From Bacillota bacterium (GTDB lineage Bacteria; Bacillota; JAAYKD01): 64,000 nucleotides of DNA. Under the pieces are notes generated by a model. It was given only the letters and a program-made list of their open reading frames with translations, was not told where the DNA came from and searched no databases. The position numbers and the translations under genes were made by a program. The first letter of the stretch is position 1. Each line of letters opens with the position of its first letter. The stretch lies in contig OY762825.2 of NCBI GenBank assembly GCA_963666425.2, positions 768,001 to 832,000 on the forward strand, given 5' to 3'. Positions 1,226-60,152 of this stretch are shown here, piece after piece.

Positions 1226-3895
1226 TTATTCAACAAAGATGGTTTGCTCCCCTTGCTGCCAAGTTACTGTCAAACCTAAAAACTCCAAACAGCGGATATG
1301 GATAAACGTGCGATCATTGATGATCTGCGGAGCAGTCACCGGTATACCTGTCCGGGGATTGCTGCTGTAGACGACATCATCCAATTCTACTTTGGCTTGC
1401 CCGACCCACATTTTCAATTGATGTCCGTGCAGGATAACCGTGGTACAGCGTTCGTTCTCCTCAAAGGAAATCGTACCGCCAAATGCTTCCACAACCGCCC
1501 GCAACGGAAGTAAAGTTGTGTAGTTCAATAAAATCGGTACAGTAGCACGGCCGGGGTCCACTTCCTGCAATTTACCCATCGCCAACATGGTTTCCCAACC
1601 GATACGCAGCACAAGCTGATTGGCTTTGCCAGTTAGCGGCCGCAGGACGGTCTGCCAATCCTGATAGACCATCTGTTCTCCCTTGCCGAGCTGTCCGCTC
1701 ACACCGCTGCCGAACAAGAATAAAGTGCCATCCCGTGCAAGCGCATAAGTCGCATACTCATTTGATACCGCGCTGCTGATATTTTCCATCAATTTTGCCG
1801 GTTTATTGATCTGCAGTGGGTTCTCTTCCAGCAACTGCCCGTAATTGTTGGCACCCCAGCCAAAAAGAGTTCCCTCCAAGCCAATAGCTAAACTGGTGTT
1901 TGCTTCGGCACTGACGCAGCGAATGGCATCCATCACCTTAACAGGCAGATTTTGTGGTTCATAGGTCCCAATCCCCAATTGACCGGCCGCATTGGCGCCG
2001 CAGGCAAAGACGGTGCCATCCAGCAGAACATAAAGCGTTGAGGCACTTCCTGCCGCTGCCTGGGATACCGCTTCATCCAATAACTGCGGCTTTGTGCGGG
2101 GAACGTTATCACCCAAGCCCAGCTGCCCGGCTGTATTATCACCCCAGACCCAGAGAGAATCGTCCGCTAGAATCGCCATGCTGTGCTCATCACCGGCGGC
2201 AATCGATTCTACGCCGCTCATCAATAAAACCGGTTCCTTACAGACAGTGATGGCGTCCCCCAATCCCAGCTGACCTTTGGCATTATCACCCCAGACCCAG
2301 AGTTCACCGTTTGCTTTTAAGGCCATGCTGTGGTTTTTTCCACCCACAACCTGCACGGTTGGATTGGTTTCCACCAAATAGGAAATACTGTCCGTAGCCC
2401 CGGTTAGGTTCGTTACCGTTTCTGTTTTGCTTTTCACATGCAGAGGATCGACGAACAATTGTGCCGGGATTTGGCTATTAACATTGGACCGATTGCCCAA
2501 TTGATAATGATCATTGATTCCCCAGAGCCATAAGCCGCCGTTGGTATCGATTGCAGCGCTGTGATTGCTGCCGCTGCCGATACTGCTGATGCCGCTTTTC
2601 AGCAGAGTAAGTGCACCGACTGCGACCGCGGCACCGAGTCCCAGCTGACCGGCGCCGTTCTCACCCCAAGTATAGAGCTCGCCATTCTGTTTTAGTGCCA
2701 GAACATGGCTGTTCCCGGCTGCTACTGCTTTGACATTTTGCAGAACCGCTGTCGCGGTCGCCTCTTTCAGTGGTTTGCCATTACCCAGCTGTCCTTTGCG
2801 ATTGTCCCCCACAGCATACAGAATGCCGTCCTGCTGTAATGCCAGCAGATGATATGCACCGGCTGAAATTTTCAGGATGCCATGTTGGACCACCGTAGGC
2901 GTGGCACTGCTTTTCTGATTGCCGGTCCCCAACTGGCCGAAGTCATTATTCCCCCAAGTCAGTAAGTCACCGTTCTGAAAGAGTGCCGCGGAATAATACT
3001 CACCGGCTGAAACAGCAAGCACCTTTTCCGCCAACAGTTTTCGCGGTATACTGCTTTGCAGCAGATCGCTATAGCCCAATTGACCATCTTTATTATATCC
3101 CCAGGTCCATAAAGAACCATCCTCTTTGACCGCCAGGCTGTGCCAACCGCCGGTTGCTGCAGTCACGACATTTTCCAGTACGCGCGCAGGCTTTTTCACA
3201 GCGGTCAGATTACCTAAACCCAACTGGCCATAATCGTTGCGGCCCCAGCACCAAAGTGAGTGATCGGCAGCGAGAGCCAGCACCTGATAATCTCCCGCCC
3301 AGACTTTTGCCATATTGCTCATCACCGAAGCCGGAATACTTTTTTGTGTGGTAGAATCGTTGCCCAGCTGACCGTAACTATTATCTCCCCAGGCAAATAA
3401 TTCACCCTTCACCGTCACCGCTAGGCTGAATTCATGTCCGGCAGCGATCGCGCTGACTGTTTCAAACAGCAAGCGGGTCGGTGTAGTTTGCGCTGCCGTC
3501 GTAGCAAGTCCTAGCTGGCCACGACTGTTCCAGCCCCAAACATAAATTTCACCTGTTTTTGTCAAAGCAATACTGTGAAAAGCTCCGGCCGCGGCAACAG
3601 CGATATTGCTCATAATATGCACCGGTTCGGTATGACTGATGGTATCTCCTGTCCCCAATTGATAATAACGGTTATCACCCCAAGCCCATAATTCACCGTC
3701 GTTCGTCACGGCGAGCGTATGGGTACTGCCGGCTGATAGAGATGCCCAATCATAAGTCGGCACTTCAGAAGAAGCCTTTGCCAGAGGGAGATTGCCCACC
3801 GTCAGGCTGCAGCTCAACACAATCAGTATCACAGTTCGCAGCATCCGTTTTAGCCGTCTTCCGGCTGCTTTCGCTGTCACTTCCTTCGCCTCCAT
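1226..3895 (-). CDS. Secreted RCC1-repeat beta-propeller protein with C-terminal copper-amine-oxidase-N/stalk-like domain
   Basis: Signal-peptide-like N-terminus, many WG.N..GQLG / AG..HS.A repeats, C-terminal PLRAVVEAFGG and APQIINDRTFI motifs; start moved to ATG 3895. Confidence 0.85.
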   Translation of the reverse strand: MEAKEVTAKAAGRRLKRMLRTVILIVLSCSLTVGNLPLAKASSEVPTYDWASLSAGSTHTLAVTNDGELWAWGDNRYYQLGTGDTISHTEPVHIMSNIAVAAAGAFHSIALTKTGEIYVWGWNSRGQLGLATTAAQTTPTRLLFETVSAIAAGHEFSLAVTVKGELFAWGDNSYGQLGNDSTTQKSIPASVMSNMAKVWAGDYQVLALAADHSLWCWGRNDYGQLGLGNLTAVKKPARVLENVVTAATGGWHSLAVKEDGSLWTWGYNKDGQLGYSDLLQSSIPRKLLAEKVLAVSAGEYYSAALFQNGDLLTWGNNDFGQLGTGNQKSSATPTVVQHGILKISAGAYHLLALQQDGILYAVGDNRKGQLGNGKPLKEATATAVLQNVKAVAAGNSHVLALKQNGELYTWGENGAGQLGLGAAVAVGALTLLKSGISSIGSGSNHSAAIDTNGGLWLWGINDHYQLGNRSNVNSQIPAQLFVDPLHVKSKTETVTNLTGATDSISYLVETNPTVQVVGGKNHSMALKANGELWVWGDNAKGQLGLGDAITVCKEPVLLMSGVESIAAGDEHSMAILADDSLWVWGDNTAGQLGLGDNVPRTKPQLLDEAVSQAAAGSASTLYVLLDGTVFACGANAAGQLGIGTYEPQNLPVKVMDAIRCVSAEANTSLAIGLEGTLFGWGANNYGQLLEENPLQINKPAKLMENISSAVSNEYATYALARDGTLFLFGSGVSGQLGKGEQMVYQDWQTVLRPLTGKANQLVLRIGWETMLAMGKLQEVDPGRATVPILLNYTTLLPLRAVVEAFGGTISFEENERCTTVILHGHQLKMWVGQAKVELDDVVYSSNPRTGIPVTAPQIINDRTFIHIRCLEFLGLTVTWQQGEQTIFVE

Positions 3896-3915
3896 TCTCT
3901 CTTTCGTTCTGCTGG

Positions 3916-4668
3916 TTAACCTCGTATCGCAATCAGTATGGTAGAAGGTGAATTTTCCTGCCAACTGCTGGCATCCATTCCTCCGTAAAAATCAATGACA
4001 CTGAAACCGGCTTCATTCAGCATCTTCTGCATCTGCAGCCGCCGGATTGGGTAAAGAATGATCTGTTGATAGGAAAGTTCCTTGGCATCAATCCGCAGCA
4101 ACGACAATCGGGTCGTCAGACAAAGGTCCCCTTCCGGCTGCAGTTCCAGATGACGTTTTAAACGAATCCCCACTTCGGTATTGGCCAGATCCGGCAGATC
4201 CTGCTCCTTGCTTGCTGCCAGCAGGTCATAATTGAATAACTGCATGACTAAGCGGCCGCCTTTCGTCAGCAATTTGGCTGCCTGTTGGAAAAAATCGCTG
4301 TACTCCGCTTCATCCTGCAGGACAGCGGAGGCATTATTCAAACAAAGTATGACATGATAACTGCCGTTGCTGCCAGGTAAATGCAGTAAGGGAGCAGCCT
4401 CAAATTGCAGCGCCCGCGGTACACGATCACGGTTAGAGAAAGCAATCGCTTTTGCCAACATCGCCTGTTCACTTTCAACTGCAGTCACCACAGCTCCGTT
4501 CACCGCCAAGAGATGCGCCAGTTCACCGCCGCCACAGGCTGCATCCAGCACATGAGCCGTCGAGATATTGCCGATTTCCCTGCTTAAAAAGTCTACCATC
4601 TCCAGGGACGGTTGTAGCAAAGCTGCATAATAATCAATAAACCCATTCATTAAATCGGACATTTTCAT
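3916..4668 (-). CDS. Class I SAM-dependent methyltransferase
   Basis: VLDAACGGG motif I; LLTKGGRLV. Confidence 0.8.
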   Translation of the reverse strand: MKMSDLMNGFIDYYAALLQPSLEMVDFLSREIGNISTAHVLDAACGGGELAHLLAVNGAVVTAVESEQAMLAKAIAFSNRDRVPRALQFEAAPLLHLPGSNGSYHVILCLNNASAVLQDEAEYSDFFQQAAKLLTKGGRLVMQLFNYDLLAASKEQDLPDLANTEVGIRLKRHLELQPEGDLCLTTRLSLLRIDAKELSYQQIILYPIRRLQMQKMLNEAGFSVIDFYGGMDASSWQENSPSTILIAIRG

Positions 4669-7006: not shown

Positions 7007-7127
7007 ATTTACCTGCTCTTGCCGACAGCCGCTGATGATCTTGATCTGAGGCAAACAAAAAAATCCGCTTGCCTTGGTGAAAAAAAGCTGTTACAATCTA
7101 GGCAAGAGTTGATTGGAGGAAGATCGT

Positions 7128-7496
7128 ATGGCTGCTATGAAGTATTCTTTCAGTGAAAAAGGTACGTTGATTCAGATGGAAGGCAAGCAGGACCTATTGG
7201 TCAGTAAAGAAAACTTTGGACCGATGGACCTTTTTGAAGCCAGCATCGGCGCCTGAATGGGTGCGGGTATCGTAGGTTACGGTACAAAAAACCAGATCGC
7301 GATTGACGGAATCACAATGGAACTTTTTGTCGAAAGAGATCCGGAGACGAAAATGGTCAATCAAATGAGTTATCAGGTTCATTTTCCGGCAGAATTTTCA
7401 GAAGAACAAAAAGCACTGATCCTGGATAAAATGGGCCATTGTTATGTTAAAAAACACCTTTTCACGCCGCCGACGGTCACAGTCAGCGAAGTATAG
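7128..7496 (+). CDS. OsmC/Ohr-like protein with in-frame TGA (7254-7256), probable selenocysteine
   Basis: GGAGG RBS, ATG 7128; reads GPMDLFEASIGA-U-MGAG where OsmC has P.E....LGAC; second Cys HCYVKKHL; hairpin after TGA. Confidence 0.8.
7267..7285 (+). promoter_or_regulatory. Putative bacterial SECIS hairpin
   Basis: GTATCGTA-GGT-TACGGTAC, 8-bp stem (one G-U) with G-initial loop 18 nt after the TGA. Confidence 0.65.
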
Positions 7497-7509
7497 GGCG
7501 ACTGAATCG

Positions 7510-7547
7510 AAAAATCCGACACAGCCAAGCAGCGGTGTCGGATTTTT
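7510..7547. terminator. Bidirectional intrinsic terminator
   Basis: AAAAATCCGACAC...GTGTCGGATTTTT between convergent genes. Confidence 0.8.
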
Positions 7548-7548
7548 C

Positions 7549-9141
7549 TTATGCTTTGACAAATCGTTTGGGATTGCGGATGGCCTTGCCGCCGCGGACA
7601 TCGTGATAAATACCCTTGTCCCAGGTTAGTTTGCCATTCACCAGAACATAGACGATGCCATTGGGATATTCTGTCGGCTGTGTTATACTGCCGTTGGTTC
7701 CAAACGTCTCGAAGTCAAAAATCGTGAGATCTGCCCAGGCGCCGACGGCAATGCGGCCCCGGTCACTCAACCGCAGTCGATCCGCCACCATACCGGTCAT
7801 CTTATGGATGCAGGTCGCCAGGTCGAGCAATTTTTCTTGCCGCACATACTTGGCGATCGTATAGGGATAAGTTTCATAATTGCGGGGGTGCGCTTCCAGG
7901 AGATCGATCCTGCGCTCATCCACCACAAAGCTGTCGGTTCCAACCATGGAGTAGGGATGCTTCAGGATACGGGCAATATCTTCCTCTCCCATGATACCGG
8001 CAGTTTTGACTTGGCCTTCATTCTCCAGGAATAAGCGCAGCACCAGCTCGGCGTAATTACACTGCCATTTTGCCATCACCTCGCCGAGATCGAGACCTTC
8101 GAGGCCGGCTGTTGTCCGGCACCAGAGAATGCCGTTGCCCAGCACCGATTGATAACGCACCGGATTGGCTGTGGCAAAAGCAGCCAATTCCGCAGCAACT
8201 TTTTGATAAATCTCCGGGTCATTGAGCGCTTGCAGCGCTGCTTCCAGACCGTTTTGCAGCAGCCATTCCGGCATTTGGGTGGCAATGGGATAAATCTGCG
8301 TATAAGGATGCAGATAAAGATCGGATAGGATATCGATGCCTTCTGCTCTGGCCGCTTCCATCAGAGCCAGGCATTGTTTCGTCTTGCCCCAATTGCGCTT
8401 GCCGCAAACCTTCTGATGCGCCAGATGCGGTCTGGCACCGCTTTGACGGCCGACATCGATCAGATCGGCGACCGACTGTTCTACCTGCAAATCCTGATTG
8501 AAGATATGGGAATCATATAAACCGTCGTATTTGGCCACCGGACGGCTGACAGCCACAATTTCCTCGTGGCTTGCCAGAGACCCGGGCAGATAGCGGCGGC
8601 CGCTGGATAAACCATAGGCGCCGTCCTGCATGGCCTGATCAATCATCTGACACATCCGCGCCAGTTCTTCCGCGCTGGGCTCAGCGGGATTCATGCCCAT
8701 CACCTGGTAACGGATTGTGCCCTGCCCGATCAGCATGGCCAGATTGATGGCGATGCCGTCCGCTTCCAGCCGATTGAAAAAATCATCCATCGTATGCCAG
8801 TCAACGTTCACTTCCCGCTTCTCCTGTAATTTGAGACGCGCTGCTTCGGTCAGCGGTGCTTCCGAACCGCCGCATTGACCGGCCAGAACAAAAGTAATGC
8901 CCTGGCGGATGGCGCTTTCTGCTTTAGGATTGGCCAGAATAGAGCGATCGGCATGACTGTGCATATCCATGAAACCCGGGCTGACTATCAAGCCGGCTGC
9001 GTCAATTTCACGTTCCGCTTTGCCGCTTAAGGGGTAACCGATGGCTGCAATTTTACCGGCCGCTATCGCCAGATCCTGTTTCAGACCGGGAGCACCGCTG
9101 CCATCCAGCACGAAACCGTTGCGAATGATCAGATCAAACAT
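7549..9141 (-). CDS. N-acyl-D-amino-acid deacylase (D-aminoacylase) family amidohydrolase
   Basis: PGFMDMHSH, GQCG, HPRNY, ADLTIFD, VLVNG motifs. Confidence 0.88.
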   Translation of the reverse strand: MFDLIIRNGFVLDGSGAPGLKQDLAIAAGKIAAIGYPLSGKAEREIDAAGLIVSPGFMDMHSHADRSILANPKAESAIRQGITFVLAGQCGGSEAPLTEAARLKLQEKREVNVDWHTMDDFFNRLEADGIAINLAMLIGQGTIRYQVMGMNPAEPSAEELARMCQMIDQAMQDGAYGLSSGRRYLPGSLASHEEIVAVSRPVAKYDGLYDSHIFNQDLQVEQSVADLIDVGRQSGARPHLAHQKVCGKRNWGKTKQCLALMEAARAEGIDILSDLYLHPYTQIYPIATQMPEWLLQNGLEAALQALNDPEIYQKVAAELAAFATANPVRYQSVLGNGILWCRTTAGLEGLDLGEVMAKWQCNYAELVLRLFLENEGQVKTAGIMGEEDIARILKHPYSMVGTDSFVVDERRIDLLEAHPRNYETYPYTIAKYVRQEKLLDLATCIHKMTGMVADRLRLSDRGRIAVGAWADLTIFDFETFGTNGSITQPTEYPNGIVYVLVNGKLTWDKGIYHDVRGGKAIRNPKRFVKA

Positions 9142-9156
9142 GCGAGTACCTCCTCT

Positions 9157-10743
9157 TTATTTGCCTTTGCGCAAAATTTTTCCCGCTTTGGCACCGGTGT
9201 GTCGGCCATCCTGGGCGGTCAGCACGCCGTTGACATAAACACGCAGAATACCTTGACAGGCTTGTTTCGGCTTCGTATAGGTCGGTGTGTCGATAATGGT
9301 TTCTGCATCGAATAAGACCAAGTCAGCCCAAAATCCTGGTTTGAGAAGACCTCTGTCCGGCAAGCCCATCCGCGCTGCCGGGAAACCGGTCATTTTCCAA
9401 ACGGCTGTTTCCAACGGGAATAGCCCGCGCTCACGGCAATAATGCCCTAAAACGCGCGGGAAGGTACCGAAATTGCGCGGATGCGGAATATCACTGCCGC
9501 TTAAGGGCAGAGAACTGCCGTCGGACCCGATCATCACCAGCGGATGCTTCATGATCATTTCCACATCTTCTTCACACATGCCAAAAGTAATCTGATTGAC
9601 GGTGCCTTTTTCTGCAATGATCAGATCGAGGGCGGCATCGACCGGTTCTTTGCCTTGCAGCGCGGCGATTTCTTCGATATTCTTGCCGATCAAGTGTTTA
9701 TTGGCTGCACTGGGCAGATCGGCTACCACGATATCGCTGAAGCGGCGCATTGATTTATCAAAATTAGCCAGTATTTCGGCGCGCATCTTGGCTCTGCTGC
9801 CCGGATCCTCTAGCCGTTTGATCATTTCATCCATACCACCCACAAAAGCCCATTTTGGCAGCATCGAAGTCAGGGTCGTAGCAGACGCGATATAGGGATA
9901 TTGATCGAGAGTGATATCGATTCCTTCCCGACGGGCGGCTTCGATACAAGCCAGCGTCGCGTGACTGGAAATACGCCAGTTTTTGCGGCCGGTGACTTTA
10001 TGATGGACACACTGCACGGCAATGCCGGCGCGGCGGCCGACTTCGATCGTCTCGCGCACGGAATCGAGGATGTAATCATTCTCATCCCGCATATGTGTTT
10101 CATAAAAGCCTTTGTACGGCGCGATCGCTTTGGCAACTTCCGCCAGTTCATCCAGATCAGCATAACAACCGGGCGGATAGATCAAACCGCTGGAAAGGCC
10201 AAAAGCGCCTTGCTGCATGGATTCGGCGGTCAAGCGCTGCATCTGGGCCATTTCTTCTGCACTCGGTTTGCGGTCGTCAAAGCCCATTACGGCCAAACGT
10301 ACCGTACCATGTCCGATCATACCGCCATAATTGCAGCTGTAACCGGCCGCTTCCATCTTATCCAGATATTCACCAAAACTCTGCCAGGAAAAGTCCATAC
10401 CCGGATCCAAAAAACCGACATAGCGTTTCAGTAAATCCATTTTTTCCGGATTAACCGGAGCTGCGGAGAGTCCGCAGTCACCGCCCAGTTCCGTGGTTAC
10501 TCCTTGCAGGATGCGGCTTTCCGCCAGTCCCACTTGGGTGATGGAAAAATCAGAATGAGAGTGAATATCGATAAATCCCGGGGCGAGTACCAGACCGCTG
10601 GCATCTATGACTTCTTTGGCTTGCTCGCATGGGACATAACCGACTGCCACGATTTTTCCATCCTGGACAGCTAAATCCCCCTTCTGCCAGGGTGCGCCGC
10701 TGCCGTCCAGTAAACAGGCATTTTTAAACAGTAAATCATACAT
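9157..10743 (-). CDS. N-acyl-D-amino-acid deacylase (D-aminoacylase) family amidohydrolase
   Basis: PGFIDIHSHSD, GDCG, DQYPY, GSDG, HPRNFGTFPR motifs; AGGAGG RBS. Confidence 0.9.
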   Translation of the reverse strand: MYDLLFKNACLLDGSGAPWQKGDLAVQDGKIVAVGYVPCEQAKEVIDASGLVLAPGFIDIHSHSDFSITQVGLAESRILQGVTTELGGDCGLSAAPVNPEKMDLLKRYVGFLDPGMDFSWQSFGEYLDKMEAAGYSCNYGGMIGHGTVRLAVMGFDDRKPSAEEMAQMQRLTAESMQQGAFGLSSGLIYPPGCYADLDELAEVAKAIAPYKGFYETHMRDENDYILDSVRETIEVGRRAGIAVQCVHHKVTGRKNWRISSHATLACIEAARREGIDITLDQYPYIASATTLTSMLPKWAFVGGMDEMIKRLEDPGSRAKMRAEILANFDKSMRRFSDIVVADLPSAANKHLIGKNIEEIAALQGKEPVDAALDLIIAEKGTVNQITFGMCEEDVEMIMKHPLVMIGSDGSSLPLSGSDIPHPRNFGTFPRVLGHYCRERGLFPLETAVWKMTGFPAARMGLPDRGLLKPGFWADLVLFDAETIIDTPTYTKPKQACQGILRVYVNGVLTAQDGRHTGAKAGKILRKGK

Positions 10744-10919
10744 CAAAAAGCCCTCCTTTTTGTCAATTCAATCGGTGTCGAACCGAATTTGAATTACGAC
10801 TGCTCTTCTTTTCCACAAAACAGCCGCTGATTCCTTGTACTTTATTCCAATTGCATGAAGGTTTTTTCCTTAAGAAAGAGAAATATTCTACTATCTAAAT
10901 ATGTGGAGGTGTTTTTAAA

Positions 10920-12575
10920 TTGGCGCGTAAAGTCCCCATCTCATTTGACCGTTACTACAAATACGAAGAGATCATGCAGTATCTCAATGATGTCGTCGCC
11001 GCCTACCCTCAGCTGGCTTCCCTGGAAAGCATTGGTAAGAGTTATGAGCAGCGTGAGATTCCGGCTCTGACACTGACTGACCGCAGCAGCGGCACACCGG
11101 AAAACAAACCTGCGCTCTATGTGGAAGCAAACATCCACGCCGGAGAAGTCACCGGCAGTATGACTGCTCTCAATTTGATCGACCTCTTGCTGAGCGGCGC
11201 CGATCAGGATGCGAAAATTCATCGTTTGTTGGAGAAATATACCTTCTATATTCTGCCGCGCGTCAATCCGGACGGAGCGGAATATTATCTGACCACGCCA
11301 AACAGCCTGCGCTCCTCCGTGCGGCCATGGCCGGAACTCGGTATGGAAAATCTGCCCGGGCTGCATCCTCAGGACATTGACGGCAATGGTATGATTCTGC
11401 AAATGCGCTTGCGCGATGACAAGCGCGGCGCCTGGAAAATCAGCAAACGCGATGCCCGTTTACTGCTGCCCAGAGAACCCTGGGACAGTGACGAAGCCTT
11501 TTATCGTCTGCTGCCGGAAGGTTTAATCAATAATTACAGCGGCGAGCCGTTTGAAGTTGTCCGCTCCCCCTTCAATTTGGATATGAACCGCAATTTTCCC
11601 TCCAACTGGAATCCGGGTGTCCAGGGCGGCGGCGATTATCCCACCAGCGAGCCGGAAGTTCGCGGCGTGGTGGAATTTATCACCGCTCATCCCAACATCG
11701 CCCTAGCCAATTCCTACCACACTTCCGGCGGCATTTTCTTCCGTAATCCTTACCAGTATGGTGATGAAGCAATCGATGCCATGGATTTGAAGTGTATCCG
11801 TGCCGTTGCTGCCGAGGGAACCAAGGTCACCGGCTATCCGGATGTAAAATCCAGCAACCGCGCCTGCCTGCCGGAATGGCTGTATGAACATAAAGGTGTG
11901 ATCGGTTTTACAACCGAGCTCTGGGACAGAATCGGTCAGGCCGGAATCGACCGTGCCGCAGCGGCAAAAGCGGCCACCGCGGAAGAAAAAGAAGAGATTC
12001 AGATTCGCCTGCTGCAGTGGAATGACCGCGTTTTAGCCGGTGCCGGCTTCTCTGATTGGCAAACCTTTGAACATCCGCAGCTCGGCAGTGTAGAAATCGG
12101 CGGTTGGGATCCCAAATATAACCTGCAGAATCCCCCCACTTTCCTGTTGGCCGGTGAAACTTATAAAAACGCCTTATGGGCGATTCGGGAAGCGGCTTGT
12201 CTGCCCCACCTCTGCTTTGATGAAATCAAACAGGAGAAATTGGATGACAAGCTTTGGAAAATCACGGCTACCGTAATTAATGATGGCTTCTTGCCGACCA
12301 ATATCACCAACAAAGCTCTGAGCTTAAAAGCAGTCAAACCGGATTGTGTCAGTCTGGAAGGTGCCGAGATTCTCAACGGCAAAAAATCGATCCCACTGGG
12401 AAACCTGCAGGGTTATGCCAACGCTCATTTCAGCGGTGGCTGGGGTCCTGCGGTTCCCACCAGTTTAGGCAAAGCCGTCTGGTTGGTCAAAGCTGCGGCT
12501 GGCGATCAGATTACCTTAACCGCCAAGAGTGTCCGCGGCGGTAAAGATGTCATCAGCTTCAATTTAAACGACTGA
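10920..12575 (+). CDS. M14 family zinc carboxypeptidase
   Basis: NIHAGE (HxxE), NPDG, NRNF, SEPE, YHT motifs; GGAGG RBS before TTG. Confidence 0.85.
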   Translation: MARKVPISFDRYYKYEEIMQYLNDVVAAYPQLASLESIGKSYEQREIPALTLTDRSSGTPENKPALYVEANIHAGEVTGSMTALNLIDLLLSGADQDAKIHRLLEKYTFYILPRVNPDGAEYYLTTPNSLRSSVRPWPELGMENLPGLHPQDIDGNGMILQMRLRDDKRGAWKISKRDARLLLPREPWDSDEAFYRLLPEGLINNYSGEPFEVVRSPFNLDMNRNFPSNWNPGVQGGGDYPTSEPEVRGVVEFITAHPNIALANSYHTSGGIFFRNPYQYGDEAIDAMDLKCIRAVAAEGTKVTGYPDVKSSNRACLPEWLYEHKGVIGFTTELWDRIGQAGIDRAAAAKAATAEEKEEIQIRLLQWNDRVLAGAGFSDWQTFEHPQLGSVEIGGWDPKYNLQNPPTFLLAGETYKNALWAIREAACLPHLCFDEIKQEKLDDKLWKITATVINDGFLPTNITNKALSLKAVKPDCVSLEGAEILNGKKSIPLGNLQGYANAHFSGGWGPAVPTSLGKAVWLVKAAAGDQITLTAKSVRGGKDVISFNLND

Positions 12576-20025: not shown

Positions 20026-20042
20026 GCGCTTAATTTCATAAC

Positions 20043-20130
20043 AACGGGGGAGCTTGTCAGCAGGCTGAGAGGAAGTAATCGAACTTCGACCCTTATACCT
20101 GATTTGGATAATGCCAACGGAGGAAGTGAT
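20043..20130 (+). ncRNA. TPP riboswitch
   Basis: GGGG..GC...GCTGAGA...GACCC...ACCTGAT..GGATAATGCCA.CGGAGGAA consensus upstream of thiamine genes. Confidence 0.93.
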
Positions 20131-20148
20131 AACTGCTTTGTTTAGCAT

Positions 20149-36741: not shown

Positions 36742-38529
36742 CTATTGATTCAAGAACTGATTGTAAATACCTCTCTTGGTATAATGCGTATGCAGCAATT
36801 CATGCGAAACACTGCCCAGAGGGGTGATCAGAAAATCTTCATACAGTTTGATGATGGAAGGATTTTCATGGGATTTACGCAGAGCTTTGCCTTCGTCTTC
36901 CCGATAAATTGCCTTCATTCTCTTCAATCTGATTTTCTGATTGGTCTGTCTGGGCTGACCGCCGCCGCTGATGCAGCCGCCGGGACATCCCATGATTTCA
37001 ATGAAATGATACGGCGATTGACCCGCCGCGACTTGGTCCATCAGTTGTTTTGCCCCGCTTAAGCCGCTGGTGACAGCGATCTTCAGCACAACGCCATCAA
37101 GGAAGGAAAATTCCGCTTTGGGCTGTTCGATCTTAATTTCCGTAGTTTTAATCTGATCCAACCCCATAATCGGTTTGACATGCAGCAGTTCAAACGGCAA
37201 TTCCCTGCCGGTGACCACTTCATAAACTGTGCGCAAGGCCGCTTCCATTACACCGCCGGTGGTGCCGAATATATCGGCTGCTCCGGTAGAAAAACCAAGC
37301 GGACTATCAAATTGAGATTCCGGCAGGGATGTAAAATCAATCCCGGCTCCCTTGATCATTTTGGCAAATTCGCGGGTAGTCAGCACGGCATCCACATTAG
37401 GATATCCCCCGTTTTGCATTTCCGGTCGGGTGATTTCAAACTTTTTCGCGGTACAGGGCATGATCGAAACGACAAAGATATCTTTGGGATCCACGCCGAT
37501 CTTTTCGGCATAATAAGACTTAATCAGCGCGCCAAGCATCATATGCGGCGATTTACAAGTCGATAAATGACCAAGTTCCTGTGGATAGGTATGTTCCATA
37601 TACTTGATCCAACCGGGGCTACAGCTGGTGATCATCGGTAAATCAGCTTCTTTGCCGGATAACGCGTCAGTCAGTCGTTTCAGCAGCTCGTTGCCTTCCT
37701 CGATGATGGTCAGATCGGCTGCGAAATTAGTATCAAACACATCGTCAAAACCCAAATCTCTCAGGGCAGTAACCATTTTACCCGTGACCAGCGTACCTGC
37801 TTCGTAACCAAATTCTTCTCCCAGCGCCGCTCGCACCGCCGGCGCCGTCTGCACGATCACTCGTTTCGTTTTATCAAAGATGGCGTTCCAGACTGCTGCG
37901 ATCGAATCCTTCTCCTGCAGTGCTCCCACCGGACAAACCGTGGTGCATTGCCCGCAATAGGTACAGTCAACCGTATTCAGTGGCAACTCGGCTGCCGGAC
38001 TGACAACGCTCTTGAAACCTCTGTTCTGCACATTCAGAATGCCGACACCCTGAATCTGGCTGCACATGGTCACGCAGCGGCGGCAGAGAATACACTTGGC
38101 GCTGTCTCTAACGATGGAAGGAGATGTTTCATCCAAATAAGCTTTGGAATGTTCGCCTTCAAAGCGCGACTCACCAACCTGCAGCAACTCACCCAGCTTT
38201 TGAAATTCGCAGCTCTGATTGCGTGAGCAATTCAAACAATCTTTCGGATGATCCGAGAGCATCAGTTCATAAAGCAGCTTTCTTTCTTTCTGCACAACGC
38301 TGGAGTTGGTATGCACAACCATCCCTTCCCGAACCTCTGTCATACAGGAAGCCGGTAGGTTTTTGGCTCCTTCCACTTCAACAACACAGATGCGGCAGGA
38401 ACCAACCTTATGCACACCTTCCAGGTAGCAGAGAGTAGGGATTAAAATATTGTTTTGTTTGGCAGCTTCCAGAATGGTCTGGCCTTCCTCCGCCACGATT
38501 TTCTTATTGTTGATGGTCAGATTAACCAT
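36742..38529 (-). CDS. hydA: [FeFe]-hydrogenase catalytic subunit (group A3 type)
   Basis: H-cluster motifs TSCSPGW, MPCTAKKFE, EIMGCPGGCISGGGQP; N-terminal 2Fe-2S, His-ligated and 2x4Fe-4S motifs. Confidence 0.95.
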   Translation of the reverse strand: MVNLTINNKKIVAEEGQTILEAAKQNNILIPTLCYLEGVHKVGSCRICVVEVEGAKNLPASCMTEVREGMVVHTNSSVVQKERKLLYELMLSDHPKDCLNCSRNQSCEFQKLGELLQVGESRFEGEHSKAYLDETSPSIVRDSAKCILCRRCVTMCSQIQGVGILNVQNRGFKSVVSPAAELPLNTVDCTYCGQCTTVCPVGALQEKDSIAAVWNAIFDKTKRVIVQTAPAVRAALGEEFGYEAGTLVTGKMVTALRDLGFDDVFDTNFAADLTIIEEGNELLKRLTDALSGKEADLPMITSCSPGWIKYMEHTYPQELGHLSTCKSPHMMLGALIKSYYAEKIGVDPKDIFVVSIMPCTAKKFEITRPEMQNGGYPNVDAVLTTREFAKMIKGAGIDFTSLPESQFDSPLGFSTGAADIFGTTGGVMEAALRTVYEVVTGRELPFELLHVKPIMGLDQIKTTEIKIEQPKAEFSFLDGVVLKIAVTSGLSGAKQLMDQVAAGQSPYHFIEIMGCPGGCISGGGQPRQTNQKIRLKRMKAIYREDEGKALRKSHENPSIIKLYEDFLITPLGSVSHELLHTHYTKRGIYNQFLNQ

Positions 38530-38531
38530 AA

Positions 38532-41500
38532 TCAACCCCTCCTGTCGCATCTAAGGCATCTCATGGCTTCAGCGATTGCATTTAATTTATGGAATCCCAC
38601 GGCTACCTCATCGAAGTTATTTTTCCTCTGTTCAGCATCTAAAAATTTCATTGGGAATCTCTCGTGCTCAACAACTTCTTCGTCATTGGTCGCAGCTGGT
38701 ATTTCAATTTCTTCTCCCGTATTGAGGATCCCCTTGCCGCCCAGATATTTATCGATGGATTTGGCGGCATTCTTACCGTCCGCGATGGCGGTAATGACAG
38801 TATCCGAACCCCTCGCTACATCTCCGCCGGCAAATACACCTTTCATCTTGGTCATCAGCGTGTCCTTGTCGGTGACGAAGGTGCCCCATCTGGTTAATTC
38901 CACTTCATCTTTGTTGATGAAAGGTAAATCGGAAGATTGGCTGACCGCCGGTATCACCATATCCACTGGCAGCAAAAACTCGGAACCGGCAATCGCTTTG
39001 GGTTTCCGCCGGCCGCTGGTGTCAAATTCCGTCAGTTCCATTCTATTGCATTCGATGGCGGTGACTGCTTCTGTACCGATAAAACGGATCGGAGCAACCA
39101 ACGGAATGATTTTAACGCCTTCTTCGATGGCATCGTGAATCTCTCTGCTGTCTGCGGGCATATCCTCAATCTGTCGGCGATAAAGGATGGTAACCTCAGA
39201 GGCACCCAGACGGATGGCGGTGCGGGCTGCATCAATCGCGGTATTGCCGCCGCCGATCACCGCAACTCTGGCGCCAACCTTAACTTCGTGGCCAAGATTC
39301 ACATCTTTCAGAAAATCCAAGCCATGATAAACGCCATTCAATTCCTCACCGGGTATATTGACGAGGTTGGAGAATTGGGTACCGGTGGCGATATAGACGG
39401 CATCATGTTTGCTTTTCAGCTGATAGAAAGTAATATCCGTACCAATTTCCGTATTCAGATGAATCTTGACGCCAACTTGCTCGATTTTTTGAATTTCTTT
39501 CGCCAATACTTCTTTGGGCAGCCGGTAAGCCGGGATGCCAAAGGCCAGTACACCACCCGCCACCGGATGAGATTCATAGACATCAATATCATAACCCAAG
39601 CGGGCTAGATAATAGCCGCAGGTTAAGCCTGACGGTCCGGCTCCAATAATGCCAATGCTCTTGCCGTTTTTGGGAAAAACTAAATCCATATAAGGTTCTT
39701 CATCGTTTAAGACGTAGTCTGCGACATAACGTTTGAGATCGGCGATGGAGATCGGCTCGTCGAGCTGTCCTCTTCTGCATTTATTCTCACAGGGATGCGT
39801 GCAGACTCTGCCGCAGATCGCAGGGAAAGGATTTTCTTTTCTGACCAAATTATAGGCATCTCTGAACCTTCCGGCTGCGATCAGCGCCACATAACCCGGC
39901 ACATTGATCCCGGCAGGACAGGCATTCTGGCAGGGCGAGATAAACATATCCGCGCAGACGCCTGCTCTGCAGTGCTTATATTTAATATGCTCTTCATACT
40001 CGTCTCTAAAATTCTTGATCATGCTCAGCACAGGATTGGGAGCCGTCTGACCAAGTCCGCAGACAGCGGTATCCCGAATCGCAGCGCCGAGTTCTTCAAG
40101 CTCTTCGATATCCCCCTCTTTGCCTTCGCCGTGGGTGATTCGTTCCAGTATTTCAAGCATTCGTTTCGTGCCAATTCTGCAAGGTACACATTTACCGCAT
40201 GACTCATCCTGAATAAATTCCATGAAGAAGCGCGCCATATCCACCATACAGGTGTCTTCATCCATGGTAATCAAACCGCCGGAGCCCATAATCGCACCTA
40301 ATTTGACCAGCGATTCATAATCCATCGGCGTGTTGAGACTTTCACTCGTCACACAGCCGCCGGAAGGGCCGCCGCTCTGAGCAGCTTTAAAATTCTTATT
40401 GCGTCGGATGCCACCACCGATATCAAAGATGATCTCACCCAGCGTCGTGCCCATTGGTACTTCTACGATGCCGGTATTATTAATATTACCGGCCAGTGCA
40501 AATACCTTGGTCCCCTTACTTTTTTCGGTGCCGTAACCGGCAAACCAGCTGCTCCCGTTGAGAATAATCGGTGGAATGTTGGCCAGTGTTTCCACATTGT
40601 TGATGATCGTCGGTTTGCCAAAAAGACCGCTCTGGAAGGGGAAAGGCGGTTTTTGTTTTGGTTCGCCTCTTTCACCCTGAATCGAGGCCATCAGAGCCGT
40701 TTCTTCACCGCAAACAAAGGCGCCTGCTCCGATTCTGATCTCAATGTCAAAATCGAACGTGGAGCCAAAGAGCTGTTTACCCAATAAACCGGACGCACGC
40801 GCGCTGTCAATCGCCAAACCGAGCCGTTCAACCGCCAAAGGATATTCTGCCCGCACATAGACAAAACCTTTACGGGCACCGATCGTATAGCCTTCGATGA
40901 TCATCCCTTCTACAACGGAATGCGGATCGCCTTCCAGCAGACTTCTGTCCATAAACGCCCCAGGGTCACCTTCATCGGCATTGCAGACAAGATATTTCTC
41001 GTCGCCCGGTGCTTTCATGCCGGATTCCAACTTGATACCTGTAGGAAATCCCGCACCACCTCTGCCGCGCAGACCCGATTTTTTAACTTCATCCACCACA
41101 TCTTGCGCTGACATTTCCGATAAAACTTTGGCTGCCGCAAAGTAACCGTCTCTGGCTATGTACTCTTCCAGAGAAGAATAATCAATGCTGCCGCAGTTTC
41201 TCAGGGCAATTTTGACCTGATTTTTAAAGTAATCAATTTGATTCAAGTAAGGCACATGCTCGCCGGTTTTTTTCTCGAGATAAGTATTTTCAATTTTAAT
41301 CTTGCCCGCAATCAGATGGGATTCCACAATGGCGGGGATTTCTTTGGCACTCAGTTTGGTATAAAAAACGCTCTCGTTTTCTGATGCCCCAAATGGTTCC
41401 ACCACCATCACCGGTCCGAGATCGCAGGTCCCGATGCAGCCCGTTTCCACGACGCAAACGCTTTCGGAAAGTTGATTCTCTTGCAGCGCTTTGAGCAAAG

Positions 41501-41648
41501 CGTCTTTAACGGCGTGGCAATTGGAAGAAATGCAGCCGGCACCGGAGCAGACCAATACTCTGTAGCGATACTTGCTTTTTTCTGCTTCATATTGCTGCTT
41601 AATCAACTTGAGATCATCCATACTCTTGATCTGTTTCTTCTCGACCAT
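38532..41648 (-). CDS. hydB: Hydrogenase diaphorase subunit (NuoF/HydB) fused to GltD/NfnB-like FAD domain
   Basis: GRGGAGFP, NADEGDPG, CGEETAL, CGKCVPCR; then PCQNACP, CGRVC..PCE..C, GAGPSG, GGGNTA, YRR. Confidence 0.88.
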   Translation of the reverse strand: MVEKKQIKSMDDLKLIKQQYEAEKSKYRYRVLVCSGAGCISSNCHAVKDALLKALQENQLSESVCVVETGCIGTCDLGPVMVVEPFGASENESVFYTKLSAKEIPAIVESHLIAGKIKIENTYLEKKTGEHVPYLNQIDYFKNQVKIALRNCGSIDYSSLEEYIARDGYFAAAKVLSEMSAQDVVDEVKKSGLRGRGGAGFPTGIKLESGMKAPGDEKYLVCNADEGDPGAFMDRSLLEGDPHSVVEGMIIEGYTIGARKGFVYVRAEYPLAVERLGLAIDSARASGLLGKQLFGSTFDFDIEIRIGAGAFVCGEETALMASIQGERGEPKQKPPFPFQSGLFGKPTIINNVETLANIPPIILNGSSWFAGYGTEKSKGTKVFALAGNINNTGIVEVPMGTTLGEIIFDIGGGIRRNKNFKAAQSGGPSGGCVTSESLNTPMDYESLVKLGAIMGSGGLITMDEDTCMVDMARFFMEFIQDESCGKCVPCRIGTKRMLEILERITHGEGKEGDIEELEELGAAIRDTAVCGLGQTAPNPVLSMIKNFRDEYEEHIKYKHCRAGVCADMFISPCQNACPAGINVPGYVALIAAGRFRDAYNLVRKENPFPAICGRVCTHPCENKCRRGQLDEPISIADLKRYVADYVLNDEEPYMDLVFPKNGKSIGIIGAGPSGLTCGYYLARLGYDIDVYESHPVAGGVLAFGIPAYRLPKEVLAKEIQKIEQVGVKIHLNTEIGTDITFYQLKSKHDAVYIATGTQFSNLVNIPGEELNGVYHGLDFLKDVNLGHEVKVGARVAVIGGGNTAIDAARTAIRLGASEVTILYRRQIEDMPADSREIHDAIEEGVKIIPLVAPIRFIGTEAVTAIECNRMELTEFDTSGRRKPKAIAGSEFLLPVDMVIPAVSQSSDLPFINKDEVELTRWGTFVTDKDTLMTKMKGVFAGGDVARGSDTVITAIADGKNAAKSIDKYLGGKGILNTGEEIEIPAATNDEEVVEHERFPMKFLDAEQRKNNFDEVAVGFHKLNAIAEAMRCLRCDRRG

Positions 41649-41661
41649 AGTCTCACCCCCC

Positions 41662-42162
41662 TTATTCATATTCTGCGATGATCGATTGAACCTTGTCGGG
41701 GTTCACCTGTTTGTAAACTTTATCATTAATTGTCATGGCAGGTGCTAATCCGCATGCGCCAATACATCTCATCACTTCGAGGGTGAATTTCCCATCCGGT
41801 GTAGTTTCTCCCACATAAATACCGAGCAGTTCCTTTAGCTTGTCGATAATCTTTTTACTTCCTCTGACATAACATGCTGTTCCCAGACAAACCCTGATCG
41901 TGTTTTTACCTCTGGGTTTGGTTGAAAAAAACGAATAGAACGTAACAACCCCGGTCACTTCCGATAAGGGTTTTCCTACCCTCTCCGCGATGAACTGCAT
42001 AAGTTCAATCGGCAGATAGCCATAAATCCCCTGGGCGATATGCAATATCTGAATCAGACTGCCCTCTTGATCACGGTATTCTTCAATCACAGCAGCGATA
42101 CGGTCATACTTTTCCTGGTCGGTTTCTTCTTTGCATGTACATTGGTTCTTCTGTTCGCTCAT
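41662..42162 (-). CDS. hydC: Hydrogenase 2Fe-2S subunit (NuoE/HydC)
   Basis: VVTFYSFF, CLGTAC, CIGACGLAP. Confidence 0.9.
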   Translation of the reverse strand: MSEQKNQCTCKEETDQEKYDRIAAVIEEYRDQEGSLIQILHIAQGIYGYLPIELMQFIAERVGKPLSEVTGVVTFYSFFSTKPRGKNTIRVCLGTACYVRGSKKIIDKLKELLGIYVGETTPDGKFTLEVMRCIGACGLAPAMTINDKVYKQVNPDKVQSIIAEYE

Positions 42163-42552
42163 AATGCCTCCTAAAACTACCTTCAAAGGTAAAATTAACT
42201 AGCCTAGTCAACCACTTTTGCAGCAACATCAAAGCTGAACACCTTTACCCCGCCCCTCCTCATCAGAAGTAAATTCGAAAATCATTTTCCTCTTTTTAAA
42301 CACATTTAAAAAACGGCTGAGACTTCCGTCGCAAATGCTACCATATAATGCCACTAATGTCAAGATAATCTGACTGTTTTTGAAGTTTTTTTTATGTCAA
42401 CCTGCTTGTCGTCTTTTCTCCGGTTCAGAACATTACCTTTCTGATCTTTTAAATTCCGCCTCAAATCACTGATTTCTTTCTGCTTTTTGAATCTTTCAGC
42501 TGTCGCTTTTGAGCTGCTTTGTTACAAAATGACACTTCTCTTTGCTGCACTT

Positions 42553-48427: not shown

Positions 48428-50320
48428 TTAATTTTTGACTAATTCAATTTCTGAAAGCACAACCGAGCCGTCTAGTCCGCTGGTGCCGATCGCGTAAACT
48501 TTCGTTGCACCGGTCTGGTCGATAAAACTAATCGCTCTTGTTGGTAAAACCCCGGGGAAACTCACCCAGACTACCAGAGGGAGATCTTTAGTAAAGTTTG
48601 GTATGAGATAGAGCGCCTTGTTTTCGATGAAACGCAGCGTGTTGGTATCTGCTTCGTTGAAACTGATGTCCAGAAATTTAAAATTCGTCAAGGCAGTGTT
48701 CGCGGTGATCAGGATCCTCTGGGCGTAATCATCCTGAGGCACTCCGAATTCGTTGTAAGATTCGTATTGGCTTAAAAGTTCCTCCGTGGCATAGTCAGCA
48801 AAAACGACGCGATCGGCCTCAAGATATTTTTGATACAATTTCATAGTCGCTGCAGTGTAGGCATTGCCATATTGCTCCAGCATGATCGCCGTACCGTACT
48901 CTTGCGTGATGATTTCTGTATTCGTGACGCAGATATGCCGCCACTCCGCTGCTTCAGAACCATGGTAGAGCAGCAGGTAAGGCTGACCAACGCTGCTTGC
49001 TTCGGTAAGCCATTTCTCGCCAGCAATCTCCTGAACATTCATACCGCCAACCAAAACGCTGTCAACATCACCCGCCGTAAGCAGACGATATTCCAGCCTG
49101 TACAAGTTCAAACTATAGTTCTGTGATGCCGTGCCGGTGTTCATCTGCGTCAGCCCGTTGATTTTGGCTGCCGTAATCGAAACCCCCGGAGCAATTTCAG
49201 ACCACGCCGCACGATCAGACTCAATCTGCTGCCAAACGTATTGTTTTGCATCCGTTCTGACAGCTTCCGGAATGCTGTCATCCACTTCGACTACGATTGC
49301 CGCCGCATCAGCGATCCATGGCAGCGCTTTCTCTTTTGCTCCCGTAAAGGTGCAGTAGACGGCGACAGCGGCGATGACTAAAACGGTGACCAGGGTGTAG
49401 ATGGCCATTTTCGGCTTTTTAGCAATCCGAGTGATCCGCTCCTTGATGCTCTGGGGGCTGCTCGTCATGGTGGTAGCCGTCACTAAAAAAGCTGCGCGTT
49501 TTTTGCAGGTCATATCGATCAGCGTACGACCGTATTCGGCACGGGCAGCTTCGCCGATGCGCTTGATGGTGCCTTCATCACAAGCCAGTTCCGCGTCCTG
49601 GCGCGAAAGCCTTGCCGCCCACCAGACAAATGGGTTATACCAATGCAAAGCAAGACTAATGCCGCGTAAGGCAGCCCAAACATGATCCCCATGATAGAAA
49701 TGGGTCGTCTCATGAGCCACACTATGCCGAAACAGAATCGCGTTTTCAGCGGCTTCGGGTGTAAGATAAATTGCCGGAGCGAAAAGGCCAAACAGACAGG
49801 GCGTCTCAACTACTGCGGTAACATAGATGGGCAGGCGTGCGTCCTGGCTGGGTAAAGGTCGGCGCGTCCTGCGTAAACGAATGGCAAAGCGTCCGTTCGC
49901 AACAGCGAAAACAACAAAAAAGAGTGCCGTACCGCCGAACCAGATCGGTCTCAGCAGTTTGCGTAAGACCAGTAATGTTTCCAGACGCGTATATTCTTCC
50001 GCTGTTCTATTTTTCGCAATGACAGTTGGGAAATTTCGCAGGAGATCCGCCGGGAAATAACCTGCTACGCTGCCATCGGGCTGATGCTCTATTTGTTCTA
50101 CCACACTGATGCTTTCTGCATCCTGCACGACAAGCATCTTTTCCACTGCGTTCATCACGCTCAAGCTGCTGTTCCAGAGGCTGAACGGGACGAGCAGCCG
50201 CAGGAGTACAAGTCCCCAGAGAGCGTATTGCAGCCGCAGACTAATTTTACCTTTTAAAAGAGAGCGCAGCAGGATGATCAGCGCAATCAAAATGCACGAG
50301 GTCAGAATCCATTCAATCAT
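48428..50320 (-). CDS. M56 family metallopeptidase (BlaR1/MecR1-like sensor)
   Basis: YALW..V.LRL, TPCLFG..P.IYL, HETTH, LHWYNP, ELACD. Confidence 0.88.
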   Translation of the reverse strand: MIEWILTSCILIALIILLRSLLKGKISLRLQYALWGLVLLRLLVPFSLWNSSLSVMNAVEKMLVVQDAESISVVEQIEHQPDGSVAGYFPADLLRNFPTVIAKNRTAEEYTRLETLLVLRKLLRPIWFGGTALFFVVFAVANGRFAIRLRRTRRPLPSQDARLPIYVTAVVETPCLFGLFAPAIYLTPEAAENAILFRHSVAHETTHFYHGDHVWAALRGISLALHWYNPFVWWAARLSRQDAELACDEGTIKRIGEAARAEYGRTLIDMTCKKRAAFLVTATTMTSSPQSIKERITRIAKKPKMAIYTLVTVLVIAAVAVYCTFTGAKEKALPWIADAAAIVVEVDDSIPEAVRTDAKQYVWQQIESDRAAWSEIAPGVSITAAKINGLTQMNTGTASQNYSLNLYRLEYRLLTAGDVDSVLVGGMNVQEIAGEKWLTEASSVGQPYLLLYHGSEAAEWRHICVTNTEIITQEYGTAIMLEQYGNAYTAATMKLYQKYLEADRVVFADYATEELLSQYESYNEFGVPQDDYAQRILITANTALTNFKFLDISFNEADTNTLRFIENKALYLIPNFTKDLPLVVWVSFPGVLPTRAISFIDQTGATKVYAIGTSGLDGSVVLSEIELVKN

Positions 50321-50706
50321 CTCTGTTCATCTCCCTCCATTTTTCGTAAAATTGCATACAATTCGTCAATCTCTTCCTGCGGCAGCGCCTGCTTTTTGGT
50401 CAGCGAACTGACCAAAAGGCTAAGGCTGCCCTGATAAACGCGGCCAATAAAATCTTCGGTTTCCTGCCGAACGGCATCCTCTCTACGAATGAGCGGTCGA
50501 AAAGATTTCATACCGCCTTCGCTGCTGCTGAAAACCGCTCCTTTTGTTTCCATGCGGCGCAGCAATGTTAGGGTTGTGCTGCGATTCCACCCCATGCGCT
50601 CCTGCAGCCACTCCGTTGCTTCGCGGCCTGTCCTGGGTGCTTTTTGCCATAGACATTCCATGACACTCCATTCAGCCGATGTCAGGTTTAATTTCTGACT
50701 ACTCAT
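50317..50706 (-). CDS. BlaI/MecI/CopY family repressor
   Basis: AEWSVMECLW, WNRSTTLTLL.RM..KG; overlaps M56 start. Confidence 0.9.
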   Translation of the reverse strand: MSSQKLNLTSAEWSVMECLWQKAPRTGREATEWLQERMGWNRSTTLTLLRRMETKGAVFSSSEGGMKSFRPLIRREDAVRQETEDFIGRVYQGSLSLLVSSLTKKQALPQEEIDELYAILRKMEGDEQR

Positions 50707-50723
50707 CGAATCACACTCCTCAT

Positions 50724-50773
50724 TGTTTACGCCTGTAAACACAGTATAGTCTGCTTGTTTACAATTGTCAACA
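50724..50773. promoter_or_regulatory. Two BlaI-type operators overlapping blaI promoter
   Basis: TGTTTAC-GCCT-GTAAACA (50724-41), TGTTTAC-AATT-GTCAACA (50756-73); minus-strand TTGACA-17-TATACT. Confidence 0.75.
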
Positions 50774-59654: not shown

Positions 59655-59909
59655 ATGATCTATATGGACTTAACCAAAAAAGCGATGCAGCTTTGATTTG
59701 ATGCTCACAAAGGGCAAACGGATAAAAGCGGATTGCCCTTTGTGTTTCATCCCATGCATGTAGCAGAAAAGATGCAAGATGAAATCACGACAATCTCTGC
59801 CCTTTTACACGATGTAATCGAGGATACAAAATACACCGTTAAAGATTAACGAGAGATGGGTTTCCCTGAGCAGGTTGTGCAAGCAGTTTCTTTATTAACA
59901 AAGCATAAG
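59655..59909 (+). pseudogene. Small alarmone hydrolase-like HD-domain pseudogene
   Basis: AHKGQTDKSG.P...HP, ALLHDVIEDT; stops at 59694 (TGA) and 59847 (TAA); truncated. Confidence 0.75.
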
Positions 59910-60152
59910 GTGCTTATTACCAGATTGGCAACTTATGAATACATTTCCGAACATCGGAGCATTTTTGTTACCGGCGCAACCGGCAGCGGCAAAACCTATA
60001 TGGCCTGTGCTTTTGGCATAGGAGCAGGCAAACAGTACTTCATTGTGCGATATATTCGTCTTCTAAATTTTCTTCTGGAATTGGAAGTGGCACACAGCGA
60101 GGGGAAATTCCCCTTGGAATATAAGGGACGCATAGAAAATAAAGGTTTTTAG
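59910..60152 (+). mobile_element. IS21 helper ATPase (IstB) fragment
   Basis: LITRLAT..YI.....IFVTGATGSGKTYMACAFG...VRYIRL; no istA seen. Confidence 0.7.

Follow-up and report, generated by a model that had tools for sequence, protein, structure and literature searches.

Does the TGA codon that interrupts a short reading frame of an OsmC-like gene mark a broken gene, or does it encode selenocysteine (Sec)? The gene lies in a 64,000-nucleotide stretch of DNA, all of which was analysed and is hereafter called the window. An earlier note, made from the letters of this DNA, had proposed a hidden selenoprotein: an OsmC-like protein with UGA in place of its catalytic cysteine and a SECIS-like hairpin just 3' of that codon.

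The reading frame and its in-frame TGA

The gene starts 121 bp downstream of purA; the next gene, for an amidohydrolase, is oriented towards it. Its GGAGG ribosome-binding site, its ATG, the TGA at codon 43 (context GPMDLFEASIGA*MGAG), the 122-residue extent of the frame and the second cysteine within HCYVKKHL were all located as the earlier note had claimed (Table 1). Past the TGA, the frame remains open as far as a TAG at 7494-7496. The 42 codons 5' of the TGA have a coding score of 0.43 bits per codon, versus 0.37 for the tail; read in the other five frames, this 5' stretch scores between -0.42 and 0.16. The Pfam OsmC match spans the TGA (residues 28-119; 42.3 bits versus a cutoff of 27.5). 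In the protein collection, the entry for this gene is the 79-residue tail alone (P0002).

Table 1 Features of the window gene and its flanks, in window coordinates
Feature	Position	Strand	Basis or remark
Candidate sigma-70/A promoter TTGCCT-17-TACAAT, TG extended -10 (tentative)	7069-7097	+	9/12 matches
Shine-Dalgarno GGAGG	7115-7119	+	8 nt 5' of ATG 7128
Full CDS, 122 aa, predicted selenoprotein, Ohr-like/OsmC fold	7128-7496	+	Frame, Pfam, structure model
In-frame TGA, codon 43, predicted Sec at first (peroxidatic-position) Cys	7254-7256	+	
Predicted bacterial SECIS, 8-bp stem, GGU apical loop	7267-7285	+	18 nt UGA to loop
Cys105 (TGT), resolving-position Cys, motif C-Y-[VI]-K-[KR]-H	7440-7442	+	Conserved in clade and homologues
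Strong hairpin, -24 kcal/mol, z -5.3	7509-7548	.	0/200 shuffles equally stable

The promoter put forward in the earlier note is present, but two sites of this type were observed versus 1.1 +/- 1.0 expected, which is within chance. Four copies of a CTTGCC/GGCAAG motif occur between purA and the gene (7016-7108), with inverted pairs at 7068-7074/7100-7106 (flanking the candidate promoter), 7049-7054/7069-7074 and 7016-7023/7101-7108; they could represent an operator, alternative hairpins or chance. The strong hairpin 3' of the gene, although missed by a simple terminator scan, is probably a bidirectional terminator common to the gene and the convergent amidohydrolase gene.

A first homologue search gave five matches from six candidates, all beginning at Met44: four 79-residue tails, one of them that of the window gene itself, and one protein of 147 residues. 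The N-terminal half is represented by a 42-residue protein (P0008; 90% identity), the last residue of which is residue 42. A phmmer search of 1.84 billion representatives yielded 105 matches. Across the 109 proteins aligned to the query, column 43 is gapped in 11 and is Cys in all 98 homologues that have a residue there; the column of Cys105 is Cys in 106 of the 109.

We then searched a profile of six full-length proteins (the window protein and its close relatives described below) over lengths 66-216, which produced 22 matches among 951 candidates. All but one of these break at codon 43: in 20 the first residue is at position 44 or 45, most of the database tails of the clade beginning with Met, and one is an N-terminal half that ends at residue 42, just before the TGA. 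The remaining match is a distant full-length Cys protein (28% identity, 47 bits), and a full-length clade member with Cys is absent from the 22 matches. The tails of the window gene and of four of its genomic relatives themselves account for five of the 22. Only four matches bear an NCBI name, in each case that of a truncated 'hypothetical protein' of 76-80 residues; the gene is thus misannotated wherever it is seen.

In a tree of the tails (79 columns; 20 clade rows and the best-scoring 30 of the 98 Cys homologues, leaving out P0124, which is the N-half fragment, P0006, P0125 and duplicates), the 20 clade rows form one side of a single branch with support 100/96. When all 98 Cys forms were included in a quick tree, the clade together with the fragment P0103 had a support of 85. 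We infer that the 14 tails in the tree that are represented by protein only also have TGA at codon 43. Cys105 is Cys in all 20 clade tails, and there are no Cys revertants among the 20 sampled clade sequences. With about 20 clusters the clade is small; its proteins are 120-123 residues long and share the motif U-[ML]-[GASL]-[ALS]-G. Most Cys forms (79 of 98) have a third Cys, located nine residues beyond the first, but only 12 of the 20 clade members do; the window gene has Gly at this position (codon 52, 7281-7283).

Codon 43 in the relatives and the predicted SECIS hairpin

A scan of genome contigs matched 101 stretches, 12 of which were confirmed, representing 11 loci. Five of these (L001-L005) are close relatives, with full-length matches at 42-52% identity in Clostridia, Bacillota and Symbiobacteriaceae metagenome-assembled genomes (MAGs). 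The other six are distant (24-39% identity; Azonexus and kin). Codon 43 is TGA in all five close loci, and in none of the six TGA genes, the window gene included, is it TAA or TAG. The distant loci have TGT at that codon in 5/5 read there (all but L010). The pairing of Cys with TGA that the earlier note had suggested looking for is therefore present, with Cys in 98/98 at column 43 and TGA in the close loci. A tblastn search of plasmids added six distant matches (29-32% identity), none spanning 80% of the query.

GGAGG is found upstream of codon 1 in all six TGA genes and upstream of codon 44 in none. ATG follows the TGA directly in five of the six genomic copies; in L005 the codon is CTC. In all 15 pairs of the six genes, pN is much lower than pS both 5' and 3' of the TGA (for L001/L002, 0.062 versus 0.373 before the TGA and 0.065 versus 0.622 after it). 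Both halves of the gene are under purifying selection.

The hairpin described in the earlier note, starting 10 nt after the TGA and with a G-initial loop, was confirmed (Table 1); one of its eight pairs is G-U and the GGU loop is at 7275-7277. For comparison among genes we used a SECIS model with a loop of 3-9 nt, a stem of 4-16 bp, a G in the first two loop positions, a spacing of 16-37 nt and an MFE <= -7.5, constraints that we coded ourselves from Fig. 2A of PMC13188914 and that are distinct from bSECISearch. The strict model is passed by all six TGA genes, with a G[GU] loop pattern and loops 17-19 nt from the UGA. From 400 random TGAs of the window, 101 pass loosely and 39 strictly, and from five Cys-codon controls two pass loosely and one strictly; the six genes are related, so that 6/6 against this background gives no clean probability. 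The earlier note had named close homologues with TGY throughout and no conserved hairpin as grounds for a simple nonsense mutation. The opposite was found, as every one of the five has TGA and a SECIS-type hairpin.

Taken by itself, the hairpin in the window is modest. Its stability (-7.8 kcal/mol on 33 nt) is equalled by 45 of 300 synonymous re-codings, and its z is -1.9 on 44 nt, -0.7 on 57 nt and 0.05 on 77 nt. For the hairpins of the relatives, 2 to 50 of 300 re-codings are equally stable. The SECIS model is passed by 30 of 300 re-codings of the window sequence and by 9 to 109 of 300 for the relatives. One pairing register is common to the five relatives, with a few compensatory changes, and that of the window is shifted by 3 nt. 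In the shared register, with six sequences only, 55 of 500 shuffles are equally paired and 253 of 500 have as many double changes. One of the two double changes counted here is at codon 50 of L005 (7962-7964), where Gly is changed to Arg (AGG) and the closing SECIS pair is kept as A-U. Because some re-codings pass the model or are as stable, covariation stays within the shuffles and the window register is shifted, the hairpin is supporting, non-decisive evidence for Sec encoding, weak on its own. A scan of the window for other recoded TGAs gave four candidates, with a SECIS at codon 43 only, and no second selenoprotein candidate was found within the window. The TGA at 59694 is no Sec candidate; it lies within the remains of genes (59670-60152, + strand), where an HD-domain-like fragment leads into a P-loop fragment, the latter presumably resembling an IS21 IstB helper.

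Competing readings of the UGA codon

A plain nonsense mutation or a sequencing error would make the gene a pseudogene. In favour of this, internal stops are frequent in individual genes, and the hairpin of the window, considered by itself, does not exceed chance. The pseudogene reading is refuted by the conserved TGA and by pN far below pS, and we give it practically no credence: the TGA is at the same codon in relatives whose synonymous sites are near-saturated, the ribosome-binding site and start are kept along with selection on both halves, and the 20 clade tails are on one branch that holds no full-length Cys member. It could also be supposed that translation stops and restarts at the TGA-ATG, giving polypeptides of 42 and 79 residues with residue 43 absent; the ATG that follows the TGA in most copies and the Met that heads most database tails fit such a split gene. 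However, this would discard the one residue that is invariant as Cys in the homologues and would cut the central helix (residues 32-55). The absence of a Shine-Dalgarno sequence before codon 44, the CTC there in L005 and a stop that is always TGA also speak against a split gene, which we consider highly improbable. Very little probability attaches as well to a genome-wide reassignment that makes UGA a Trp or a Gly codon (table 4 or 25), or to leaky near-cognate read-through, for which the open frame speaks and nothing more. Reassignment is disfavoured by stop-codon usage: TGA ends 15 of 54 genes in the window, out-of-gene read-throughs are short, TGG is used 196 times and TGA stops are also found in the loci of the relatives. 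In addition, Trp or Gly would be senseless at an invariant catalytic Cys. The conserved TGA, the placement of the ribosome-binding site, the CTC of L005, the pN values and the TGA stops together remove the pseudogene, split-gene and code-reassignment readings.

A closer competitor is SECIS-dependent decoding of the UGA as Cys, by a non-canonical selC*-type tRNA-Cys and SelB, with which all sequence features of the clade gene are compatible. Sec is the usual reading of UGA, and selC*-type decoding has been reported from few lineages. It does exist, including in a Bacillota genus, the examples given in PMC11415595 being Desulfotomaculum nigrificans and some Desulfobacterales. However, it presupposes a Sec-type signal anyway, and no such tRNA was found in the window or the relatives' flanks; we regard it as unlikely. 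Genes for the Sec machinery itself (selA, selB, selC and selD) were likewise absent from the window and from the flanks of L001-L005 (up to 10 kb): Rfam found no SECIS or tRNA-Sec family in the window and L001-L005, ARAGORN no tRNA in the window and these flanks, and Pfam no Sec machinery among 56 window and 77 flank proteins.

Sequence comparison thus favours the selenoprotein proposed in the earlier note, with TGA in every close locus at an invariant Cys column, selection on both halves and SECIS-type hairpins throughout, and UGA codon 43 very probably encodes Sec in the clade gene. Translation would run from ATG 7128 on through the UGA, where SelB and Sec-tRNA(Sec), bound to the hairpin 18 nt downstream, would insert Sec at residue 43. 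The product would be a 122-residue protein of the OsmC/Ohr fold with a Sec43/Cys105 redox pair.

Fold, possible function and genomic setting

The alignment-based structure model of the window protein has a pLDDT of 89 (a single-sequence fold, with a pLDDT of 61, was set aside). Its best structural match is 2PN2 (Foldseek E 6.5e-6; Z 11.6, r.m.s.d. 3.3 over 104 residues); the next are at a Z of about 10, with 1N2F, 1QWI and 1ZB9 at 9-10. Residues U43 and C105 are 62 residues apart, close to the spacing of 64 in Ohr, where XfOhr has Arg19, Glu51, the peroxidatic Cys61 and the resolving Cys125 (PMC5962072). The Arg/Glu pair, which activates the thiol in Ohr and OsmC (PMC5384416, PMC5962072), is missing, as judged by sequence position: the residue ten before 43, Glu in those enzymes, is M, G, G, S, T and G in the six proteins, and neither loop has a conserved Arg. 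Since the catalytic Arg/Glu is absent, the clade protein, which has the OsmC/Ohr fold, is placed in the 'Ohr-like' group and is not a canonical OsmC or Ohr. The description in the earlier note of an OsmC-like protein with its catalytic Cys at the UGA accordingly stands for fold and position and fails for membership in canonical OsmC/Ohr. To call residue 43 peroxidatic is an inference from its position.

2PN2 is the guide structure of the catch-all 'Ohr-like' group, in which the Cys pair is kept and the catalytic Arg/Glu is absent, according to PMC5384416. This subgroup (COG1765/YhfA type; 2PN2, 2EGT, 1ML8) has the same fold and a redox pair about 60 residues apart, also without Arg/Glu, whereas the clade has Sec for the first Cys, and its first redox residue is at 43 versus a median of 50. 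The Ohr (TIGR03561) and OsmC (TIGR03562) peroxidases resemble the clade in fold and in redox-pair position, but their HMMs do not match the window protein at E<=1. The top NCBIfam match of all six full-length proteins is to residues ~36-128 of the OsmC domain/YcaO domain protein TIGR03549, a fusion of 723 positions with a cutoff of 900; the clade proteins, by contrast, stand alone (122 residues in the window) and score 14-25 bits, and no YcaO gene was found in the window or flanks. The nearest Cys relatives also resemble the N-terminal domain of this fusion, 80 of 84 alignment members matching at E<=0.01.

Given Sec, there is about an even chance that the protein functions as a thiol-dependent peroxidase/oxidoreductase, probably homodimeric as its relatives are. 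In what would be the Ohr cycle with Se, a hydroperoxide would be attacked by the selenolate of Sec43; the selenenic acid so formed would then react with Cys105 to give a selenenylsulfide, which would be reduced again by a dithiol, either a lipoylated protein or thioredoxin. A selenol is ionised at neutral pH, so that the Arg/Glu activation pair may be dispensable for Sec. Nearly as plausible, on the same condition, is a selenoprotein that is not a peroxidase, such as a disulfide/persulfide oxidoreductase, a sulfur or selenium carrier or a metal-handling protein. This would be in keeping with the absence of the catalytic Arg/Glu, with the resemblance of the nearest Cys relatives to the fusion domain and with the lack of a conserved oxidative-stress neighbourhood in the window or flanks. 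Ohr-like proteins are moreover uncharacterised, and one of them was inactive in one assay: for TvOsmC, PMC5384416 mentions peroxidase activity as absent in one study and present in another. The Ohr-type spacing of the redox pair tells against such a role, and no partner gene or operon points to one.

OsmC-like selenoproteins are an already listed kind, and what is new is the clade itself. They were predicted in 2005 from three Sargasso Sea sequences with the motif UXXT (PMC1088965), and Table 1 of a 2026 review has OsmC-like as one entry among 119 families (PF02566/UxxT, MCS5647933.1; PMC13188914), with a different Sec motif counted as a distinct subfamily. As far as these sources describe them, the published UxxT protein and NF041052 (OsmC_like_Se) share with the clade the PF02566 domain, a single Sec and a 3' bacterial SECIS, and the published Sec appears, by eye, to be at the first catalytic Cys as well. 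Against the NF041052 cutoff of 95 bits, however, the window protein scores 17.7 and L005 14.5, and the other four are unmatched at E<=0.1. The +3 position of the clade is A in 10, L in 5 and S in 5 of 20 sequences and never T, and the lengths differ, NF041052 having 144 positions and MCS5647933.1 being much longer than the clade proteins. The failed cutoff and the missing UxxT define a separate, unannotated subfamily. The nearest relatives of the clade are Cys-form proteins, and NF041052 is matched far more closely by some of these (best E 2.7e-15) than by the clade, a pattern suggestive of a separate change from Cys to Sec. An independent origin of Sec in the clade is likely; the trees here comprise the clade and Cys forms. 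The Bacillota form was not described in the parts of the selenoprotein, SECIS and family-list literature covered here, BSepDB online and Haft and Tolstoy 2025 aside, and names of OsmC and relatives were unmatched in the covered part of BSepDB Table S1.

The clade would add a bacterial selenoprotein subfamily that no NCBIfam model captures. With Sec as a marker of catalytic residues, it supports redox catalysis by residue 43 among the uncharacterised Ohr-like proteins, and it allows Sec and Cys to be compared, as they occur in nature, on a scaffold that lacks the Arg/Glu pair. To specialists this should be welcome, not startling, given the 2005 prediction and the small size of the clade. A more ambitious proposal, which we put forward tentatively and think rather doubtful as a whole, is a second independent origin of Sec in the OsmC/Ohr fold, in uncultured anaerobic Bacillota whose clade would be obligately Sec and escapes current annotation. 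The selenolate would there take the place of Arg/Glu and make an efficient peroxidase of an Ohr-like scaffold. If true, it would provide a direct handle on the role of the widespread Ohr-like proteins.

Gene neighbourhoods give no clue to function. The upstream neighbours of the six TGA genes vary and the downstream gene is convergent in all six; in the Pfam annotation of window and flank proteins, a shared neighbourhood was limited to L001/L002 and, partly, L003/L004. The host belongs to an uncultured lineage of Bacillota: PurA of the window shares 93% identity with its counterpart in a MAG named 'Negativicutes bacterium' and ~63% with those of Bacillota and Peptococcaceae MAGs. The neighbours of the gene at 7549-12575 are a tandem pair of amidohydrolase_3 paralogues and a gene for an M14 peptidase, and amidohydrolase or M20 peptidase genes are also near L001-L004, suggesting peptide-fermenting hosts. 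A three-gene [FeFe]-hydrogenase cluster (36742-42186, - strand), comprising a NuoE-like protein, a 1045-residue NuoF fused to a pyridine-nucleotide oxidoreductase and the catalytic subunit, fits an anaerobe.

Elsewhere, L002 contains group II intron fragments (342-643, - strand). The window has an ordinary TPP riboswitch (20036-20142, + strand) before a thiamine salvage operon (transporter, thiM, thiE, thiD), a BlaI/BlaR1-like regulator pair (48428-50742, - strand), a protein of the serine beta-lactamase family (57905-58906, + strand) and a 912-residue protein with ~12 RCC1 repeats and a copper-amine-oxidase N-terminal-like domain (1226-3964, - strand).
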